Positions 2,599 through 11,183 of a stretch of 64,000 nucleotides of DNA are shown here, one piece after another. Source of the DNA: Anaerolineae bacterium (GTDB lineage Bacteria > Chloroflexota > Anaerolineae > UBA1429); the NCBI GenBank assembly GCA_963675785.1, contig OY776562.1, positions 1,344,001-1,408,000 on the forward strand, given 5' to 3'. Each line of letters opens with the position of its first letter. Within the stretch, counting starts at the first letter, position 1. The notes beneath the pieces are model-generated. The model was given only the letters and a program-made list of their open reading frames with translations. It did not search any database and was not told where the DNA came from. A program made the translations under genes and the position numbers.

Positions 2599-4494
2599 TC
2601 ATCCACCGCGCAAAACGCGGGTATCTCCCAAACGCCGGGTAACTCGACGCTGATCCAGTGCTTCGAGCAAGGCCAATGTATAGCGTCTGCTCGTGCCCAG
2701 CAGGTCCCGTATTTCAGCCACAGTTGCCTGCCCATGTTCTTTCAAAAAAGCCACTACACGCTCTTGCATTTCTGTAAAAACGCCTGCCTCATACGCCAAA
2801 TCCGGGCTCACCCGCACCAACCGGCCCGATTCGATCAAATACCCCAATAACTCGGATCCAATCTCGGCCTCAACTTCACCTAGCGCAGGTGGTGTATACC
2901 CTGCATTCCGGATGCGTTCATAGACCCCATCAACAGCCTGTTGTTGAGTTACAGTCAGCACAACCTTGTGTTCGGCCAAAGAGGCTATGCCGCCAATCAA
3001 TTGCAGCGTACCGCGCGCCTGGGCTTCGCGACTCCAGGCATCAAAAGCCTCATCTGATAGCCGCAAGCGGCTGCGCAATTCTTCACGCGACATGCCAACT
3101 CTCAACGGGTGCTCCACGTAAAAGTCCTCTAGCAACTCTAGCGCCTGCTGACAGGTCGTCTCCCAAGCTTCCCGCCCGAATACAATACTGTCGTCGCGAA
3201 GGGCATCGAGCGAGCCGCTGGCCAATACCAGACTGCCCCGCTGCACAAGTTGCCCCAACGCAGTCAGTGCCTCAGTAGCTGCCAAACCGCTGGCATTGCG
3301 CAATTCCTGCCAGCTCTGCGGTCGATTGCCTGGCAAAGCCGCCATAATCTCCAGCGGGGATCCCCCCGAAAAGGCCTTGAGCCGCTCAATGACACGCAGA
3401 TCATTTCGCTTATAACGTCGTCCAGGACGCGTATTCAGCACCACGCCGCCGCCCAGTGTATCCGCAGGAGAAGGCCGGCGCAAGACAAAGCGATCGCCGC
3501 GTTTACATGCCAGTGCCTCGCTCAATCTCAATTGGCCCCAGCCACTCTCTCCCGGCAACAGATCCTCAGCATCCAGCAGTCTCACCCGCGCCAACACACG
3601 AGATGAGCCGGTATAGAACTCGAGTTCATCGTCATGGTCAATACCAATAGGCGCGTCATTGACCACGCGCAGCGACACATCCAGCAGCAAGGTGCCGCTA
3701 ATAACGCCAGGAGCCGCGATCACCTGGCCTCGCTGCACAGCATCCTTGTCTATGCCCGCCAGATTTATAGCCAGACGACTTCCCGGCCCAGCCTTTTCCA
3801 ACGTCTCGCGATGAGATTGCAAACCACGGATGCGAGCCCGTCCTTCGCCCGGGCGAATCTCGACATCTTGCCCTACCTCAAACCACCCGTCTGAAAGTGT
3901 CCCTGTTACCACCGTGCCAAACCCAGACATGGTAAAGACACGATCCACAGGTAAACGAGGCAACCCCAGGTCAGGGCGTTCAGGGGCATCGGCCAGCAAC
4001 CGATCCAATTCGGCCAGCAACTCATCCAGGCCCTGGCCGCTTGTTGCTGAACAGGGAATAATATGTGAACCTTCCAGGCTGGTGCCCATCAACAAGGTTT
4101 CAATCTCATCCACGACCAGTGAGAGCCACTCCTCATCTTTGACGAGATCAACCTTGGTCAGGGCAACCACGCCCCGTTCAATCCCCAGCAAGTCAATAAT
4201 TGCCAGGTGTTCGCGAGTCTGGGGCATCACGGCTTCATCAGCAGCCACCACAAACAGAGCCGCATCAATACCACCAATGCCTGCCAGCATGTTTTTGACG
4301 AAATCCTCATGGCCGGGCACATCGACAACGCTTACATCCAAACCACTTGGCAGAGTCAACCAGGCAAACCCCAGATCAATGGTCATCTGGCGCTGCTGCT
4401 CTTCTTCCAACCGATCCGGATTGATCCCTGTCAACGCCTTGACCAGGGTAGACTTGCCGTGATCTACATGGCCAGCCGTTCCGATAACGTACAA
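2599..4494 (-). CDS. selB: Selenocysteine-specific translation elongation factor
   Basis: GTAGHVDHGKS, TIDLGFA and DVPGHEDFVKNMLAG motifs; C-terminal winged-helix GTSRRYTLALLEALD...TRRLGDTR; 631 aa. Confidence 0.95.
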   Translation of the reverse strand: MYVIGTAGHVDHGKSTLVKALTGINPDRLEEEQQRQMTIDLGFAWLTLPSGLDVSVVDVPGHEDFVKNMLAGIGGIDAALFVVAADEAVMPQTREHLAIIDLLGIERGVVALTKVDLVKDEEWLSLVVDEIETLLMGTSLEGSHIIPCSATSGQGLDELLAELDRLLADAPERPDLGLPRLPVDRVFTMSGFGTVVTGTLSDGWFEVGQDVEIRPGEGRARIRGLQSHRETLEKAGPGSRLAINLAGIDKDAVQRGQVIAAPGVISGTLLLDVSLRVVNDAPIGIDHDDELEFYTGSSRVLARVRLLDAEDLLPGESGWGQLRLSEALACKRGDRFVLRRPSPADTLGGGVVLNTRPGRRYKRNDLRVIERLKAFSGGSPLEIMAALPGNRPQSWQELRNASGLAATEALTALGQLVQRGSLVLASGSLDALRDDSIVFGREAWETTCQQALELLEDFYVEHPLRVGMSREELRSRLRLSDEAFDAWSREAQARGTLQLIGGIASLAEHKVVLTVTQQQAVDGVYERIRNAGYTPPALGEVEAEIGSELLGYLIESGRLVRVSPDLAYEAGVFTEMQERVVAFLKEHGQATVAEIRDLLGTSRRYTLALLEALDQRRVTRRLGDTRVLRGG

Positions 4495-4496
4495 TC

Positions 4497-5726
4497 CTAG
4501 CTCCCTGGCTTGAGTCTGGGTTCAAGGTCTGTCAGTGTCTGCCGTACAGCGGCAACTCGCAACTTGAGCAAATCGAGCATCACGCTCTCGAGTTCCTGCA
4601 CACGAGACATGGCCTCACTATGCAGTGCCGCTACCTGTACTGCTAATTGATCAACCGTACCCACATCCTGCTTGCGCCAGGCTTCGAGGTTATCCAGGCG
4701 TCCATCATGTTGATCCAACACTTTGTTCAGACCAGTCTCCACCGTCTTGAAGCGATCGCTTTCTTGTGCCAGGCGGCGCTCCAACTGGGCGCGGGCTTCG
4801 TCAAGTTGGCGACGCTGCTGATCCGAATCAATCTGCTGTACCTGCCGCACCTGATCCACCTGCTGGCTCACGCCGTGAATGAGTTCCTGGCTTTCCTGCA
4901 GTACACGGCGATTCTTTTCGTGTTGATCGCTGTAATAGCGCATCTGGTCGGCCCACACATCAACCTGGTGGCCAAAGCTCTCGATCTTGCGCCCCCACTC
5001 GGTAAGAGTCTGCGCCCGTGCACGTTCATTCAATCGCACCGTCTCAAACAAGTCGTCTCGCTCACGAGAAATTTCTGCGCGGATGCCATCATAGGCTTTC
5101 ATACGCTCCGCAAGGCGAGGCAATTCCGTCTCCAGCAAGAGCAAGCGCGCTGTCTGATTCTTGTCCGTCTCACCCGATGCTTGCGTTACTTCTTGAATCT
5201 GACCAATAGATTGAACAGTTCGACTAATGCCTTCTTGAAGCTGGCGTTGCTTTTCTTCGCCTGCAGCCACTTTTTTGCCAACATCAGTAAGCGTCTCTTG
5301 CATACGCAAAAGCTGTTCACTCAGCCTGTGTTCTTCGGCTGTTCTCATCGTCAGTGACTGTTCTACACTGTCGAAACGCTCGAGTTCATTTTGAATATCG
5401 CGGATGGCCTGCATATCGTGCTCTCGTTGGGCTTGCCGCGTCTTGGTTTGGTCGTTCAGTGTGCTCTGTAATCCGCGCTCAACTTCATTGACCCTGAGCA
5501 CCAGTTCATCGCGAGTATGCTGCATCGCATCTTCAACAGCTGGAACACGCGCCAGTTGGGCCTGCAACTTTGTCATGCGCTCTTCCATAGACGCGAGCCG
5601 TTGGTTCTGGTCAGCAAGCGCTACTGCTTGCTTGTCTAGTGTCTCACGCAGCTCGGTCACCAGAGAACGCGATTTGCGCAGCTCTTGGTCCAGGTAAGAT
5701 ACGCTAATATCTGGATTAGTGCTCAT
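4497..5726 (-). CDS. Long coiled-coil hypothetical protein
   Basis: 409 aa, E/Q/R/L-rich heptads; 4-nt overlap with the upstream gene. Confidence 0.75.
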   Translation of the reverse strand: MSTNPDISVSYLDQELRKSRSLVTELRETLDKQAVALADQNQRLASMEERMTKLQAQLARVPAVEDAMQHTRDELVLRVNEVERGLQSTLNDQTKTRQAQREHDMQAIRDIQNELERFDSVEQSLTMRTAEEHRLSEQLLRMQETLTDVGKKVAAGEEKQRQLQEGISRTVQSIGQIQEVTQASGETDKNQTARLLLLETELPRLAERMKAYDGIRAEISRERDDLFETVRLNERARAQTLTEWGRKIESFGHQVDVWADQMRYYSDQHEKNRRVLQESQELIHGVSQQVDQVRQVQQIDSDQQRRQLDEARAQLERRLAQESDRFKTVETGLNKVLDQHDGRLDNLEAWRKQDVGTVDQLAVQVAALHSEAMSRVQELESVMLDLLKLRVAAVRQTLTDLEPRLKPGS

Positions 5727-7345
5727 TCAATCCCCTCGAATCTGTACATAAGCGGCGCCTCAAAACCCTCATCATTTACGAAAGCAACAGTCCCAAGATC
5801 TGCCCAGTTCCAAAGCCATTCGGCATTCTCATCGGCACTCACAATGCAGCCGTATGAATGGGCCTGGCCCACATACTGTGCCCAATCGACAGCACCGTTG
5901 GAAAGCCGCGGGAGAGCGTGAAAGCCATTCTCAGTGCCACCGGCCCAATAAAGCCCCAGCCACTTGGGCATCCAAATATTCCAGGTTGAGCCATATGCTT
6001 CTTCCATCTTGCTCTGTAGCGGATAGCGCCCAGCATTGGTGGGCGCAGAAGCTCGCCCAATCATAACCGACCACTCTTTGACAACAACATCATCCTCATA
6101 GACTTTGACCCAGAAATCGGCTAATGAAACCACGATCCGCGTAGAAGGGCAATAGGCATCGCGCACCGCAACGATGGCTGCCTGCACATCCGGATCGTCA
6201 GGGCAAACCTCGGCCAATTCCAGCACAGCATCTATAGCCACTTCCCAATCTTCGGCGTCGACGTTAGGATCGTCGCTCCAATCCGCTACAATGTTGGCAT
6301 AAGAATCGCATAGCATTGTAATAGTGTCTTTGTAATCACTATGCAGTTTTTCTACGCGCGTGAGCTTTTCAATGACAGTCTCCGAGTCATTCACCCAGTA
6401 GGCTTCAACACCCTCCATGTACAATTCGTGTACCCGGCGTACGTCCTGAACGCCTAAATGGTTCCCATCCAGGCGTACTGCCTCGTCCAACAACAGGTTG
6501 GCATCACTCAACTGGTTTTCGTCAATAAGCTCAAGGGCCTTTTCATAATAAGCATTGGCCAGTGCAGTACAAGCCTCATTATCATAGGGGGCAATCTCGC
6601 GAATCGCTTCAAGGGATGTGATGGCCGAATCCCAATCCGCCACCGTAATGCCCACATTCGCTCTGATCCAGAGATCCGCCGTCAGTTCATCAGTAGTAGG
6701 AGTAGGCGTTAGGTTGGGATCTTGCGTGGGTAACACTTCGGCCAGAGCAAAGGCGTAGCTCTGTCGATACGCCGAAAAACCCAACATCACGCCAGCGACA
6801 ACTATAACCACTGTGATAAAGGAAATAACTGGTGTGGCAATCTTGTCGAGACGTTCTCTCGTAAGCCATACATGCCACAAGCGGTGCCAAAAAGCGGCAA
6901 AACCAGCGCCGGCTTTTGCCAGCCAGCGGCCCAATGTGGTAGCGCTGCCCTGTGTAACCAGCCAGGCACGTTTTGCCCCACCACTCAAGGCTTCACGGCG
7001 TTCCTTGCGGCGCATCTGCGCAGCTTCAACTTCAAGTTCTTCACGCGTCTGGCCGCCTTGAGCAATCCGCTGTTCTTCAGCCCAACGCAATGCTTCGGCA
7101 ATACGGGGACTGTCGCGCAGCATGGTTTGCCCTTCGGTCAACAGCCGCACCGCCTCAGTGGGCGTTTCAGCACAATAAGCCAGCCAAAGCCAAGCCTCCT
7201 CACAGTCGGGGCATGTCTGAATCACACGGCGGAAAACCTCTGCCGCTTTTTGCGTGTCACCACCCTTGGCCAAAGAAACGCCTTCAGTGAGGTGGGACTC
7301 GATCAAATAGCGCATCCGAATCTCTTCTTGCCCGCTCGAAGCCAT
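5723..7345 (-). CDS. Membrane-anchored TPR-containing L,D-transpeptidase (YkuD family)
   Basis: N-terminal TPR (AWLWLA), one TM helix, C-terminal GFHA...SYGCI catalytic motif. Confidence 0.85.
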   Translation of the reverse strand: MASSGQEEIRMRYLIESHLTEGVSLAKGGDTQKAAEVFRRVIQTCPDCEEAWLWLAYCAETPTEAVRLLTEGQTMLRDSPRIAEALRWAEEQRIAQGGQTREELEVEAAQMRRKERREALSGGAKRAWLVTQGSATTLGRWLAKAGAGFAAFWHRLWHVWLTRERLDKIATPVISFITVVIVVAGVMLGFSAYRQSYAFALAEVLPTQDPNLTPTPTTDELTADLWIRANVGITVADWDSAITSLEAIREIAPYDNEACTALANAYYEKALELIDENQLSDANLLLDEAVRLDGNHLGVQDVRRVHELYMEGVEAYWVNDSETVIEKLTRVEKLHSDYKDTITMLCDSYANIVADWSDDPNVDAEDWEVAIDAVLELAEVCPDDPDVQAAIVAVRDAYCPSTRIVVSLADFWVKVYEDDVVVKEWSVMIGRASAPTNAGRYPLQSKMEEAYGSTWNIWMPKWLGLYWAGGTENGFHALPRLSNGAVDWAQYVGQAHSYGCIVSADENAEWLWNWADLGTVAFVNDEGFEAPLMYRFEGIE

Positions 7346-7997
7346 AGGAGATCTCCTTCTGCAGCGTAAACGCTGGCTCGATTATAGCATTGCACCACAC
7401 ACCCGGCAATAGCACCATGCCCGAAGCAGCCTGACTGAAGCGGCTAGAATATTGCTCAAAGTAGATTGCAAGTTTTCTTACCTAAAATGTAGTATAACGT
7501 TATTATCAGAATAAATAATGATAAAATATATAAATGCATATGATTGAATAAAGGAGTAAATTTCAAAGAATTGACAGTATTATCATCCGGATGCGCAAAG
7601 CTTGGTCAGTTACCCCAGCAAGCCAGAGCCCTTGGGAAAAACAGCTTTAGGCAACCAATGCGCTGACACATATAGAAGTATCTGTACACCGAAATATGCA
7701 AAATTCAGTAATCAAACAATCGAAAATCATGTTCGATTGTTCAACGATAGAAATCATGCTATATCACTAATAAATGATTAACATGACATCTAGAAATGAT
7801 TTTAATAGATTCATAACCTCGACACATAATGAAATAGACATCTGAAGAGAACCTACCTGGCTGAAATCAGAGTGAATAATCACTTTTATTTGGTGACAAC
7901 CCTGCAACATCGATGATCTAGACTCATTGTTAAAGCCATATGATGATCACTCTGCACAAACAAATCTGTTTAACCGTGGTTGAATCGAGAAGGTGCG

Positions 7998-8717
7998 ATG
8001 AATCCATCAGAGAAAAAAGCGGAACGCATCCTGCAAATCGAGCAATTGCTGCTGGCTTACCCCGAAGGACTCACTCAAGCGGAAATCGCCCGCCGCCTCA
8101 ACGTAGATCGTTCCACGATCAGTCGATATCTAGTTTCAATGCCTGCCCATATTTACATTGACGATCTAAACGGTAACCGCTGGAAAGTGGATAGAGAATC
8201 CTACCTGATCCATGTGCGCTTTACCCTCAATGAGGCACTGGCCATACACCTGGCTACACGCTTGCTAGCTACGCGGATGGAACGCCAGAATCCTCATGCT
8301 GCTTCTGGGCTGCGCAAACTGGCTGGTTCCTTGACTCTCCTAGCGCCGCGAATTAGTCAACACATGCAGCGTTCAGCAGACGTTATGGATGACCCCGGGC
8401 AACTCCAAGACCCAAATTTCTTGCGCACCTTGGAGGTTCTCACTCTGGCCTGGGCAGAGGGGCGCAAAACACAGGTTTGGCATCGTAGCGATGATGGTCA
8501 AGTCAGCGAATCTGTTTTTTCTCCCTATTTCATCGAACCGTACGCGGTCGGCCAGGCGGTGCATGTCATTGGCTGGCGAGAACCGCCTGAAGCCATTCGC
8601 ACCCCACACGGGGTGCGTGGATTGAAACCTCAACCGATCGTGCTACCGGCACTCACCTTTTATCGCACTCCACACAGGTATCCTGTGAGCAGACGGATGT
8701 CACCCAGTTCAGACTGA
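7998..8717 (+). pseudogene. HTH-WYL transcriptional regulator, truncated within the WYL domain and running into a CRISPR repeat
   Basis: HTH GLTQAEIARRLNVDRSTISRY and WYL-type FSPYFIEPYAVGQAVHVIG...AIRT. The sequence after IRT (PHGVRGLK) is translated CRISPR repeat; the WCX domain is absent. Confidence 0.85.
8596..8680 (+). CRISPR. Remnant type I-C-like CRISPR array: one repeat, one 33-nt spacer and one degenerate terminal repeat
   Basis: Repeat 8596-8628 (T)TCGCACCCCACACGGGGTGCGTGGATTGAAAC with a GCACCCC/GGGGTGC hairpin and ATTGAAAC end; spacer 8629-8661; degenerate copy ATCGCACTCCACACAGGTA from 8662. Confidence 0.85.
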
Positions 8718-9031
8718 GAATCCACTTTTTCCCCTGTGACGCAATGCAAAAAAGCCAGTGCCAAACGTCCCTAAAAATGTGTGGCAGAAGTCGTGAGTTT
8801 AGGTTCCTTGTGATTACTCGCCTGTATCTGTATCAAGATTGTTAACAGTTCATAGCTGTACTTGTGTCGTTAATATTATGTTTAGGGCTACTAGAAATAT
8901 AGGCCTAGTCATGAATAGGCACAGCATTCGGTGGTTCGATACGTTCGCTAAAATACATTCTTGCTTGCGGCACCCCTGCGAATTGTGCTAGTGTGGCGGC
9001 ATAAACGTGATACGAGGAGTGATAAATACGG

Positions 9032-9553
9032 ATGGTAGAAACAGATCGATTGATATTGCGCCCATTGCTGGCCGAGGAACTGGAGCTGATTGCAGCAGAT
9101 CCGCAGCAGCTGACGCGAAAAGCAGGCTTGACCGTCGAACCAGATTTGGCCGAAGAACCGGTGCCCCAAGCTATAGAATCCATGTTGGTTGGCTTGCGTG
9201 CTGCAGACGAGATCGATCGGCCCTGGCAGACTTTTTGGCTAATGCAGCTCAAACCTGATGGTCACGGCGTGGGTATGTTGGGGTTCAAAGGAGTGCCCAA
9301 CGAGAAAGGCGAAACAGAAGTGGGGTATGGCACTACTTTCGCCTATCGTGGAAAGGGCCTGATGAGTGAAGCGTTGGTGGGTTTGCTGGGTTGGGCTTTT
9401 GCCAGTGGGCGCTGCCAGGCAGTGACGGCCGAGACTCTGCCAGAGAACGGGGCATCTCAGCGGGTGTTAAGCAAGGCGGGCTTTGTGCGCGTGCCGGAAC
9501 ACACAGGCGAATGCTGGCTGTGGCGTTTGGAACGAGAGACATGGCGAGCGTGA
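9032..9553 (+). CDS. GNAT (RimJ/RimL-type) N-acetyltransferase
   Basis: ETDRLILRP start, EVGY, YRGKGLMSEA and NGASQRVLSKAGF motifs. Confidence 0.9.
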   Translation: MVETDRLILRPLLAEELELIAADPQQLTRKAGLTVEPDLAEEPVPQAIESMLVGLRAADEIDRPWQTFWLMQLKPDGHGVGMLGFKGVPNEKGETEVGYGTTFAYRGKGLMSEALVGLLGWAFASGRCQAVTAETLPENGASQRVLSKAGFVRVPEHTGECWLWRLERETWRA

Positions 9554-9604
9554 TGTTGATTTCCCCACTCCGTTTGGGCCGCAAATGAAGACGAGTTTTT
9601 TCAT
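9552..9604 (-). pseudogene. N-terminal remnant of a P-loop NTPase/kinase
   Basis: MKKLVFICGPNGVGKST with an upstream GAGGA; the resemblance ends where it meets the GNAT stop codon. Confidence 0.6.
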
Positions 9605-9767
9605 CAGGCGTTTCCTCGACATCGCATGAGCAATACACGAGAAACTTGGTTTATGCTTGAGCATTCACGAGTGCAGTTGTGGTCTTATTTTGCGCTGGCT
9701 ATCTTAACATAAAGCTGTTATACTATACATGCATCTTGATGATGCCTTATAGTCGAGGGAGTACACA

Positions 9768-10022
9768 ATGATGATGTACCCACATTGGGGAAATTTCACA
9801 GGTTTTTGGGGCTTGTTGGCCGTTCTACTCGGCCTGTTTTTGACCTTGTTGCTGGTAGCGGCAATCGTTATTTTGATTATCTGGCTGGTACGCAAGGCTA
9901 AGGGAGATTCAGCGACCAGGGCCAATCAGCCTTCTGCAAAAGAACTCTTGGCGCAGCGCTATGCACGCGGCGAGATCAACCATGACGAGTTCATACGCAT
10001 AAAAGACGACTTGGATACCTAG
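9768..10022 (+). CDS. SHOCT-domain membrane protein
   Basis: TM helix followed by AKELLAQRYARGEINHDEF. Confidence 0.85.
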   Translation: MMMYPHWGNFTGFWGLLAVLLGLFLTLLLVAAIVILIIWLVRKAKGDSATRANQPSAKELLAQRYARGEINHDEFIRIKDDLDT

Positions 10023-10040
10023 ATCGAAGGTCATTCATTC

Positions 10041-10080
10041 AACCGCCCGACATATCAAAAGTATGTCGGGCGGCTTTGTT
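10041..10080 (+). terminator. Intrinsic terminator
   Basis: CCGCCCGACATA...TATGTCGGGCGG followed by CTTTGTT. Confidence 0.7.
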
Positions 10081-10126
10081 ATTGGGCATTGTCTTGATTG
10101 TGTCAAGAAACAGCACTGATCAGGGA

Positions 10127-10218
10127 ATCAAGCGTTACGCCGATCGGAGATCGAGCGTTACGCCGATCGGGGATCAAGCGTTGCGCCGATCGGGGATCAA
10201 GCGTTGCGCCGATCCCAG
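10127..10218. repeat. Four tandem copies of a 23-bp unit overlapping the AKR stop codon
   Basis: ATC(A/G)AGCGTT(A/G)CGCCGATCGGGG-type units start at 10127, 10150, 10173 and 10196. Confidence 0.9.
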
Positions 10219-11183
10219 GGATACGTCCAGCCGTGGTACCACTTGCTGGCATAGAGCCTGGTCAAGTCCTCGGCAGAAAGGCGCGGCTCGCCAGAGGCGG
10301 CGGCGTTGGCCTCTACATGGGCGATGCGGCGCATGCCGGGAATCACTGTGCTGACAGCCGGGTGGTCAAGGATGAACTTGAGTGCCAGGGTAGCCATATC
10401 GGGGGCGCGATTGCTGAGCGCCTTTTCCACCTGCAGAATATGGGGTTCGGCCTCTTCCAGGCGTTCGGATGTCATCCAACTGGCGCGCCAGTCGCCATCG
10501 GCGAATTGGTGCCCAGCGCGGAACTTGCCGGTCAGCAGGCCCTCCTCAAAGGGCACGCGCACAATGACGCCCACCCCATGCGCTATGGCTGCGGGCAGTA
10601 GCTTTTCGGAAGGGCGCTGCTCAAAAATATTGTAGATTACTTGCACGGTGTCGATGAGGCCGGATTCTATCAGGGTAACGGGGCCGTAGGGATCCCAGTC
10701 GTTGGCCGAGACGCCAAAGGCGCGGATCTTGCCCTGTTCCTTGAGCTTGTTGGCTGCTTCCAGCCAGGCGTCCTCTTTCACCCAGGGGGGCGTCCAGGCG
10801 TGCAGCTGCTGTACATCCACATAATCCATGCCCAGGTTGCGCAGGCTGGTCTCGGTGCATTCAATGATATAGTCAGTCGGGAAGACGTCCTCGATGGATT
10901 CATCGGATAATGCGGGCCAAAGGCCGGTTTTGGTAGGTACCTTGGTGCTGACGGTGATTTCGCTGCGGTGGCTGCCCAGCGCCTTGCCAATGAGTTCTTC
11001 AGAATGACCGTTACCATAGCCCAGAGCTGTATCAAAATGGGTGATGCCCTTATCAAAAGCCTTCTGCAGGCATTCAATGGCCTCTTGATCGTCGCGGGGG
11101 CCCCATCCTCCGCCAATACTCCACGCTCCAAAGCCGATCTCGCTTACCCGAATCCCAGTTTTCCCCAGGGTACGCTGCTTCAT
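10197..11183 (-). CDS. Aldo/keto reductase
   Basis: Start reassigned to MKQRTLGKTG (GGAGG RBS); FDTALGYG, STK, QQLH and IPGMR motifs. Confidence 0.9.
   Translation of the reverse strand: MKQRTLGKTGIRVSEIGFGAWSIGGGWGPRDDQEAIECLQKAFDKGITHFDTALGYGNGHSEELIGKALGSHRSEITVSTKVPTKTGLWPALSDESIEDVFPTDYIIECTETSLRNLGMDYVDVQQLHAWTPPWVKEDAWLEAANKLKEQGKIRAFGVSANDWDPYGPVTLIESGLIDTVQVIYNIFEQRPSEKLLPAAIAHGVGVIVRVPFEEGLLTGKFRAGHQFADGDWRASWMTSERLEEAEPHILQVEKALSNRAPDMATLALKFILDHPAVSTVIPGMRRIAHVEANAAASGEPRLSAEDLTRLYASKWYHGWTYPWDRRNA

Follow-up and report, generated by a model that had tools for sequence, protein, structure and literature searches.

The window analysed here, a stretch of 64,000 nucleotides from an Anaerolineae bacterium genome (GCA_963675785.1, contig OY776562.1, positions 1,344,001 to 1,408,000 of the forward strand), contains on its plus strand an open reading frame of 239 amino acids (7998–8717) that joins part of a regulator gene to the remains of a CRISPR array. 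Its first 202 codons (7998–8603) belong to a regulator of the wHTH-WYL-WCX type and comprise the wHTH, the linker helices, WYL strands 1 to 3 and half of strand 4; the N-terminal HTH (residues 9–48) is recognised by the Pfam models HTH_IclR (6.9e-7) and HTH_11 (4.9e-6). The chimeric tail (8604–8717, codons 203–239 and the stop) is coded by a repeat, a spacer and a terminal repeat, shows homology to no WYL protein in the alignment or by BLASTP, and ends in a TGA located in the flank (8715–8717). The codons GCC ATT CGC ACC, for A199, I200, R201 and T202 (8592–8603), continue unbroken into CCACACGGGGTGCGTGGATTGAAAC, and Thr202, where the WYL homology ends both in the alignment and in the BLASTP comparison with the intact allele P0121 (described below), falls at the first bases of the repeat. 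After the invariant R201-T202, homologues read L/F-K-x-E-R-I-E-R and the window reads PHGVRGLKPQ. An earlier note on this DNA, made by a model from the letters alone, had proposed that a WYL reading frame is fused directly to a type I-C repeat, and the codons, the alignment and the end of the BLASTP match at T202 confirm it. Any annotation of this product as a 239-residue “HTH protein” should be read with this in mind: it is chimeric, and its final 37 residues come from the translation of CRISPR repeat and spacer.

The last full repeat, read in the chimera as ...RTPHGVRGLK, occupies 8596–8628 on the plus strand. It has the 33 nucleotides given in the earlier note, but its first base is T where arrays have G, and the perfect type I-C repeat is the 32-nt stretch 8597–8628. 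The traits of I-C repeats are present (32–33 nt, a GTCGC start, a G+C-rich hairpin and a GTGGATTGAAAC end), and 30 of 33 positions are identical to the 33-nt array repeat of two relatives' loci (L002 and L004), the three mismatches to the L002 repeat being the first base and one compensated stem pair. As in L002, the repeat folds into an 8-bp hairpin with a free 3' handle (−16.6 kcal/mol), and none of 200 shuffles folded as well. The exact 32-mer was also found in multi-copy arrays at eight loci of the genome_contigs set, with 3–27 copies per locus. The assignment to type I-C made in the earlier note is upheld by these exact copies, by the shared fold and by the arrays of L002 and L009 that type the repeat, which adjoin I-C cas genes. 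The arrays with the exact 32-mer (L060–L067) belong to Bacteroidales, Prevotellaceae, Paludibacteraceae and Verrucomicrobiales MAGs, all from other phyla; this is a very widely shared I-C repeat variant, used in Bacteroidota and Verrucomicrobiota MAGs. An exact-repeat search of metagenome_contigs for an intact locus of the same species returned only one unrelated array (L068).

Behind this repeat lie the sole remaining spacer (33 nt, 8629–8661, plus strand) and a terminal, trailer-end repeat (8662–8694, plus strand), so that one spacer followed by a degenerate repeat is indeed what is found; the period of 66 between the two copies is within the range of 64–74 seen in relatives. In the terminal copy identity drops from 14/17 in the 5' part to 6/16 in the degenerate 3' half, and no hairpin forms (31 of 200 shuffles fold as well); a degenerate, hairpin-less second copy is the usual look of a trailer-end repeat. 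No leader is present, as the coding sequence of the regulator abuts the repeat directly, and on the other side the former trailer flank of the array (8695–9031, plus strand) extends up to a GNAT acetyltransferase gene (9032–9553). A search for further copies of the repeat, which the earlier note had suggested, found at up to three mismatches this single occurrence in the whole genome of 3,217,757 bases. The spacer has no second match in its own genome and no exact match in viral_contigs, and an Rfam scan of 7300–9100 at E≤1 matched no family. Just behind the scar, 8715–8803 is a short dispersed element with a split second copy on the minus strand at 1008062–1008242 (90–93% identical), and loose contig ends occur within it at 8715, 8757 and 8776 in three sequencing runs.

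The gene and the repeat overlap at the junction (8597–8602, plus strand), where the microhomology TCGCAC is common to codons I200–T202 and to the 5' end of the repeat. The earlier note had put this overlap at roughly 7 bp (TCGCACC); the shared bases do exist, but six of them are certain and seven, with base 8603, are the most that can be counted. Within the 720-nt reading frame, the 6-mer TCGCAC is confined to the junction and the terminal repeat.

The regulator belongs to a large family, with 721 homologues of the window protein at E≤0.001, the best of which have 325–348 residues with the domains PF13280 (WYL) and PF25583 (WCX) and cover only about 84–85% of the query; some are named WYL or YafY regulators in their source records, which are Chloroflexota and Anaerolineae MAGs. 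With P0009, a full-length homologue, 36 loci were found; the 27 with at least 3 kb downstream were counted and the other nine dropped. The regulator, of 325–335 residues, is located directly upstream of cas3 on the same strand in 26 of these 27 (20 type I-C and six type I-E), unlike in the window, where no cas3 stands beside the regulator. The statement in the earlier note that WYL genes often head cas operons holds for this family, whose full-length members are far from never being linked to cas genes. One regulator locus of the 27, L034, is the only one without downstream cas genes. Among other short homologues (P0102, P0051, P0054, P0078, P0079 and P0095), none has a repeat-coded tail.

The gene order in relatives gives an idea of what the locus has lost. 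In L009 a single strand carries, in this order, the regulator, cas3 (HD plus helicase), cas5c, cas8c, cas7c, cas4, cas1c, cas2 and then the array, with all cas genes above the NCBIfam cut-offs for the I-C models, and L002 has the same order, but with cas3 in three ORFs (L002:11014-13568). The arrays of relatives begin 8.2–9 kb downstream (8.2–8.4 kb in L009 and L002) on the strand of the regulator and oriented like the remnant in the window, so a deletion from codon 202 to a late repeat gives exactly the arrangement of the window. The nearest genome compared (G001, of the same family and another genus) has the regulator followed by cas3, cas5c, cas8c and cas7c up to the end of the contig; none of the 40 relatives is a genome of the same genus. 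The intact WYL-cas3...cas2-array order that the earlier note had predicted in relatives is present, but not between the same flanks, since the I-C locus of G001 is flanked by PNPase and signal peptidase and not by the neighbours seen in the window.

The rest of the genome, a single contig with 53.6% G+C, offers no second home for the missing genes. Searches by tblastn with Cas5c, Cas8c, Cas7c, Cas4, Cas1c and Cas2 of L009 found nothing at E≤1e-3, Cas3 of L009 matched only the cas3 of a type I-E system, and the regulator query matched only over residues 4–204. Because the genome has no I-C Cas proteins and the remnant has no leader, the latter cannot act as CRISPR immunity. The type I-E locus lies 270 kb away (1064900–1082900, L058) with cas3, cse1, cse2, cas7e, cas5e, cas6e and cas1e, and its array has 145 copies of a 29-nt repeat at a period of 61, with an interruption of 632 nt after the copy at 1082027. 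Since this system was kept, the strain did not lose CRISPR immunity altogether. Its cas3 is split into overlapping ORFs in different frames (L058:2942-4150 and 4069-5592, model positions 21–412 and 414–805), which is due either to a frameshift or to a sequencing error. A heliorhodopsin gene is found just upstream of the I-E locus, on the opposite strand.

At 90% identity the window protein falls in a cluster of four members: its own entry (P0123), P0001, P0122 and P0121. P0121, encoded on a contig of 38,575 nt, is the intact allele; it has 325 residues and is identical to the window protein at 201 of 202 positions up to T202, after which it continues with LKVERIERIELTQEQ..., the normal WYL end and a WCX domain. 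The residues right after T202 are LKVERIERIEL in P0121, and the window has the repeat-coded tail instead. In a search with Cas8c, none of the 120 matches listed was assignable to the 38,575-nt contig. P0001 is the same chimera as that of the window with H21 for Y21, and it is found on two other contigs, the longest of 2,588,069 nt. P0122, a second chimera of 230 residues, is identical through K210, which is the end of the repeat-coded part, and different from there on.

Evidence from sequenced samples was drawn from Logan contigs over positions 6500–10500 of the window. Contigs of three samples cross 8602/8603 with no differences: record 1 of X15 (11,578 nt, covering 6500–10190), record 8 of X16 (1,116 nt, 8091–9206) and record 26 of X19 (603 nt, 8081–8683), all from one study (P13) that is possibly the source of the assembly. 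The mapping across the junction proposed in the earlier note as a guard against misassembly has in this way found the join in the samples themselves.

A fourth sample, X18 (study P14), contains a near-identical strain, which carries H21 (8058 T>C) and otherwise differs in 0–2.7% of the letters in the flank pieces. Letters 1–491 of its record 17 (9,101 nt) fit 8112–8602, and the further 8,610 nt are unlike the window; that the fit extends only to 8602 suggests that the intact allele does not have the C at 8603. The corresponding codon of L009 is separated from the first repeat by 8,599 nt, and from this match in length and the existence of P0121, rather than from annotation, we infer that the 8,610 nt are the cas operon. 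Six other contigs of X18 have different inserts of 34–36 letters between two copies of 8597–8628, each insert ending in G, the first base of the canonical repeat. Record 18 (612 nt) runs from the interior of a repeat through a different last spacer and a homologous terminal repeat into the flank of the window, up to 9211; its terminal repeat has differences at 8669 and 8694 and one base inserted behind 8662, and a single difference is listed in the flank after 8694. No single contig of X18 joins the 8,610-nt stretch to the array or bridges both flanks. The depth of the intact path is 18.4, against 50–62 in the flanks, which means that the X18 population also holds other forms of the locus; two variants (depths 28.9 and 39.2) are present over 8027–8141, and most of the population must carry something else after about 8141.

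These data also bear on the notion that nothing was deleted at all, and that the locus is either an assembly artefact or a mini-array created by off-target integration of a spacer at a repeat-like site in the regulator gene. The genome is a single-contig assembly and the TCGCACC of the gene does resemble the start of the repeat, two circumstances from which such a notion could draw. An artefact, however, would hardly be crossed without differences in three samples and recur as the same chimeric protein on two further contigs, and an integration would duplicate gene sequence on both sides of the spacer, with the gene resuming behind it. In the window the canonical repeat is perfect in the first copy, the gene does not resume, and the flank is the trailer flank of the array of the sister strain. 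Both versions are extremely improbable.

With high probability, the locus is a scar left when about 8.6 kb and most of the array were recently deleted through a microhomology. The earlier note had envisaged a deletion that took away the C-terminus of the WYL protein, all cas genes, the leader and nearly the whole array, and the intact allele P0121, the cas-linked relatives and the X18 contigs support it. The ancestor would have carried, on the plus strand, the regulator, cas3, cas5c, cas8c, cas7c, cas4, cas1c, cas2, a leader, a type I-C array and the trailer flank. Illegitimate recombination through TCGCAC(C), by end joining after a break or by replication slippage, would then have linked regulator codons 200–202 to the start of a repeat close to the trailer end of the array. 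The same six or seven bases would have been on offer in every repeat of the array. What would have been lost are the last 123 codons of the regulator and about 8.6 kb of cas genes and leader, and what would have been left of the array are one repeat, one spacer and the degenerate terminal repeat. Joins at short microhomologies are a mark of RecA-independent illegitimate recombination or of alternative end joining.

The order of events is less clear-cut than the anatomy, and the second chimera is the reason to consider it. When the differences of X18 record 18 were read by hand into the window sequence and translated, a tail of 20 residues was obtained, the last 18 of which are the tail of P0122 (for the first two, differences near the end of the contig are not listed there). 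This makes P0122 the same fusion of gene and repeat, with the last spacer of the sister strain behind it. The window and P0001 carry another spacer than P0122, and the breakpoint is shared. The earlier note had taken the spacer of the window to be the oldest of the array; with a different trailer spacer in X18, and with two scar alleles that retain different spacers, one of them that of X18, this is not established.

Two scar alleles that share a breakpoint and keep different spacers are what would be expected if the loss had taken two steps, that is, if an initial deletion had ended in a repeat high up in the array, perhaps the first, and had removed only cas genes and leader, and the orphan array had later collapsed to different spacers in each lineage. 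The loss of spacers by recombination between repeats is documented, as stated in the study of type I-C Cas3 (10.1101/860999). The position of the window spacer beside the terminal repeat, however, would need a further recombination within some 14–17 shared bases, the two terminal repeats differ at three listed places, and independent deletions through the same microhomology fit the data equally well. The two-step course is plausible, at somewhat less than an even chance. If the deletions were independent, the fact that the Ile-Arg-Thr codons of the regulator spell the start of the repeat would make the locus a built-in fragile site, from which type I-C is shed repeatedly; this is put forward tentatively and is on the doubtful side. 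If true, it would let the species shed the whole type I-C system repeatedly and cleanly. Since the intact allele and two scar alleles are all present in one uncultured population, the route and the recurrence of the loss are questions that can be addressed with existing data.

As to what set off the deletion, the break could have been made by the Cas3 of the locus itself after self-targeting, or the loss could have been selected because the array targeted a resident prophage or plasmid. Type I systems are reportedly lost under the targeting of temperate phages, which speaks for selection by analogy only. Also by analogy only, type I-C Cas3 is described as producing large deletions that are mostly resolved at flanking microhomologies (10.1101/860999). 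Against this stand the spacers at hand, since the one remaining in the window has no second match in the genome and none of six X18 spacers, from a larger spacer set, matches it at up to three mismatches. A self-inflicted or selected loss of this kind is improbable.

The consequences for the protein can be judged on an AlphaFold2 model of the intact allele P0121 (34-row alignment, mean pLDDT of 78.5), in which the WYL strands span residues 156–163, 169–182, 187–195, 199–204 and 208–217 and the WCX domain residues 244–323. With the cut after residue 202, strand 4 is halved and strand 5 is missing, as are the invariant K204 and R207 and, with the WCX domain, its RWH motif. PF13280 has no match in residues 1–202 at E≤0.01, and it is matched in full-length homologues (2.6e-8 in P0009 and 8.6e-7 in P0002); PF25583 is absent from the window product and located at residues 243–318 in P0009. 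The ligand-sensing part is therefore not missing as a whole, as the earlier note had it: half of strand 4, strand 5 and the WCX domain are gone, but three and a half of the five WYL strands are kept. The linker helices that cross in the dimer are also retained, and two copies of residues 1–202 are predicted to pair via helices 66–119 with a score of 0.60, the best of three controls reaching 0.00. In this prediction at least 89% of the contacts are shared between runs and the partner pLDDT is at least 68; the mark used was reached by 20 of 30 solved homodimers and by one of 23 single chains, and the result may reflect likeness to solved dimers of the family.

Because the WYL barrel is incomplete, we infer that the 239-residue chimera has lost its function and is probably a very young pseudogene, whose frame is most likely open only because there has been no time for it to decay. 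Given the predicted dimerisation, some residual function of the 202-residue part is conceivable. The earlier note had gone further, toward a signal-blind repressor. On such a reading the product would be a wHTH dimer that stays bound to its operator because no ligand can release it, at its own promoter or at another target such as the I-E operon. The reading frame is open, the start, the upstream region and the conserved motif CCTGCAACA are intact, residues 1–202 may pair through the linker helices, and six of 27 relatives combine this family of regulators with I-E operons. In CapW, moreover, the point mutants S158E and R200A of the WYL surface no longer derepress (PMC11662680). The losses listed above, which leave a barrel likely to misfold, weigh on the other side, as do the fact that the operon once regulated is gone and the finding that no stretch of 10 or more letters is shared between the region upstream of the regulator and that upstream of the I-E cas3. 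Conservation offers no help, as the 201/202 identity to the intact allele makes the event too young for it to inform. A live repressor is accordingly unlikely, and the reading of the product as a young pseudogene is preferred.

The motif CCTGCAACA, located at 7901–7909 on the plus strand and kept in the scar, may serve the regulator gene as a promoter or operator element. In the window and in all four loci of the close clade (L002, L009, L020 and L059) it precedes the WYL start by 51–112 nt, and it is present in one of 28 loci of the distant clade, with a background of 0.03 per 270 nt. A scan of 7346–9040 for promoter and terminator consensus sequences found sites no more frequent than in shuffles. 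The region that contains the motif (7346–7997, 652 nt) separates the regulator from an L,D-transpeptidase/TPR gene on the minus strand (5723–7345) and has 37.7% G+C, against 55.1% in the window. In sample X16 a contig of 771 nt corresponds exactly to 7350–8120, that is, the upstream region and the first 41 codons, at a depth of 176 against 93–98 in its neighbours and with loose ends on both sides. This doubling of depth, together with the loose ends, points to a second form in that sample that shares only 7350–8120. The 30 letters behind 8120 in this form have no match in the genome of the window, and it may be another truncation of the same regulator gene.

Regulators with this architecture are known from other defence systems. 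The wHTH-WYL-WCX proteins CapW, BrxR, DriD and PafBC have been described as regulators of defence operons (PMC11662680, PMC9122601, PMC12041258, 10.1101/2022.01.04.474952), and the intact allele has the same three-domain layout and probably heads an immune operon; P0121 aligns over its whole length with the solved chains 9pfq and 8tp8 (E about 7e-11). In CapW and DriD, operator binding responds to an ssDNA ligand. The relatives of the window protein differ from the CapW/BrxR group in that they head CRISPR-Cas I-C or I-E operons and not CBASS or BREX, and the copy in the window differs in that it breaks off within the WYL barrel and lacks the WCX domain. Another parallel is sll7009 of Synechocystis, which has a WYL domain and negatively regulates the type I-D system there, as cited in PMC4012209. 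Like the regulators discussed here, it is associated with a type I CRISPR-Cas operon, but of another subtype (I-D).

CRISPR-Cas systems have a patchy distribution and are presumably lost often, but a natural loss is seldom observed in its states before and after the event together with a junction readable at the level of the base. The deletions provoked by type I-C Cas3 resemble the window in the subtype, in the kilobase scale of the deletion and in the short microhomology at the junction, and they differ from it in that no self-targeting spacer is found among the spacer of the window and the six X18 spacers (10.1101/860999). A broader comparison is with CRISPR-Cas deletions at large. Here the likeness is evident, given that the cas operon has disappeared, only a short remnant of the array without an evident job survives, and sister strains keep the locus at the same spot. 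That deletions remove CRISPR-Cas loci and leave orphan repeats or arrays behind is a general and well-known pattern, and the present case is a clean but ordinary example of it and not a new kind of system. It differs from the known cases in the location of its breakpoints, which fall within the regulator gene on one side and within a repeat on the other, and in the two alleles that share a breakpoint. What is particular to it is the in-frame fusion of gene and repeat, the readable microhomology of 6–7 nt, and the presence of an intact allele and two scar alleles in public data.
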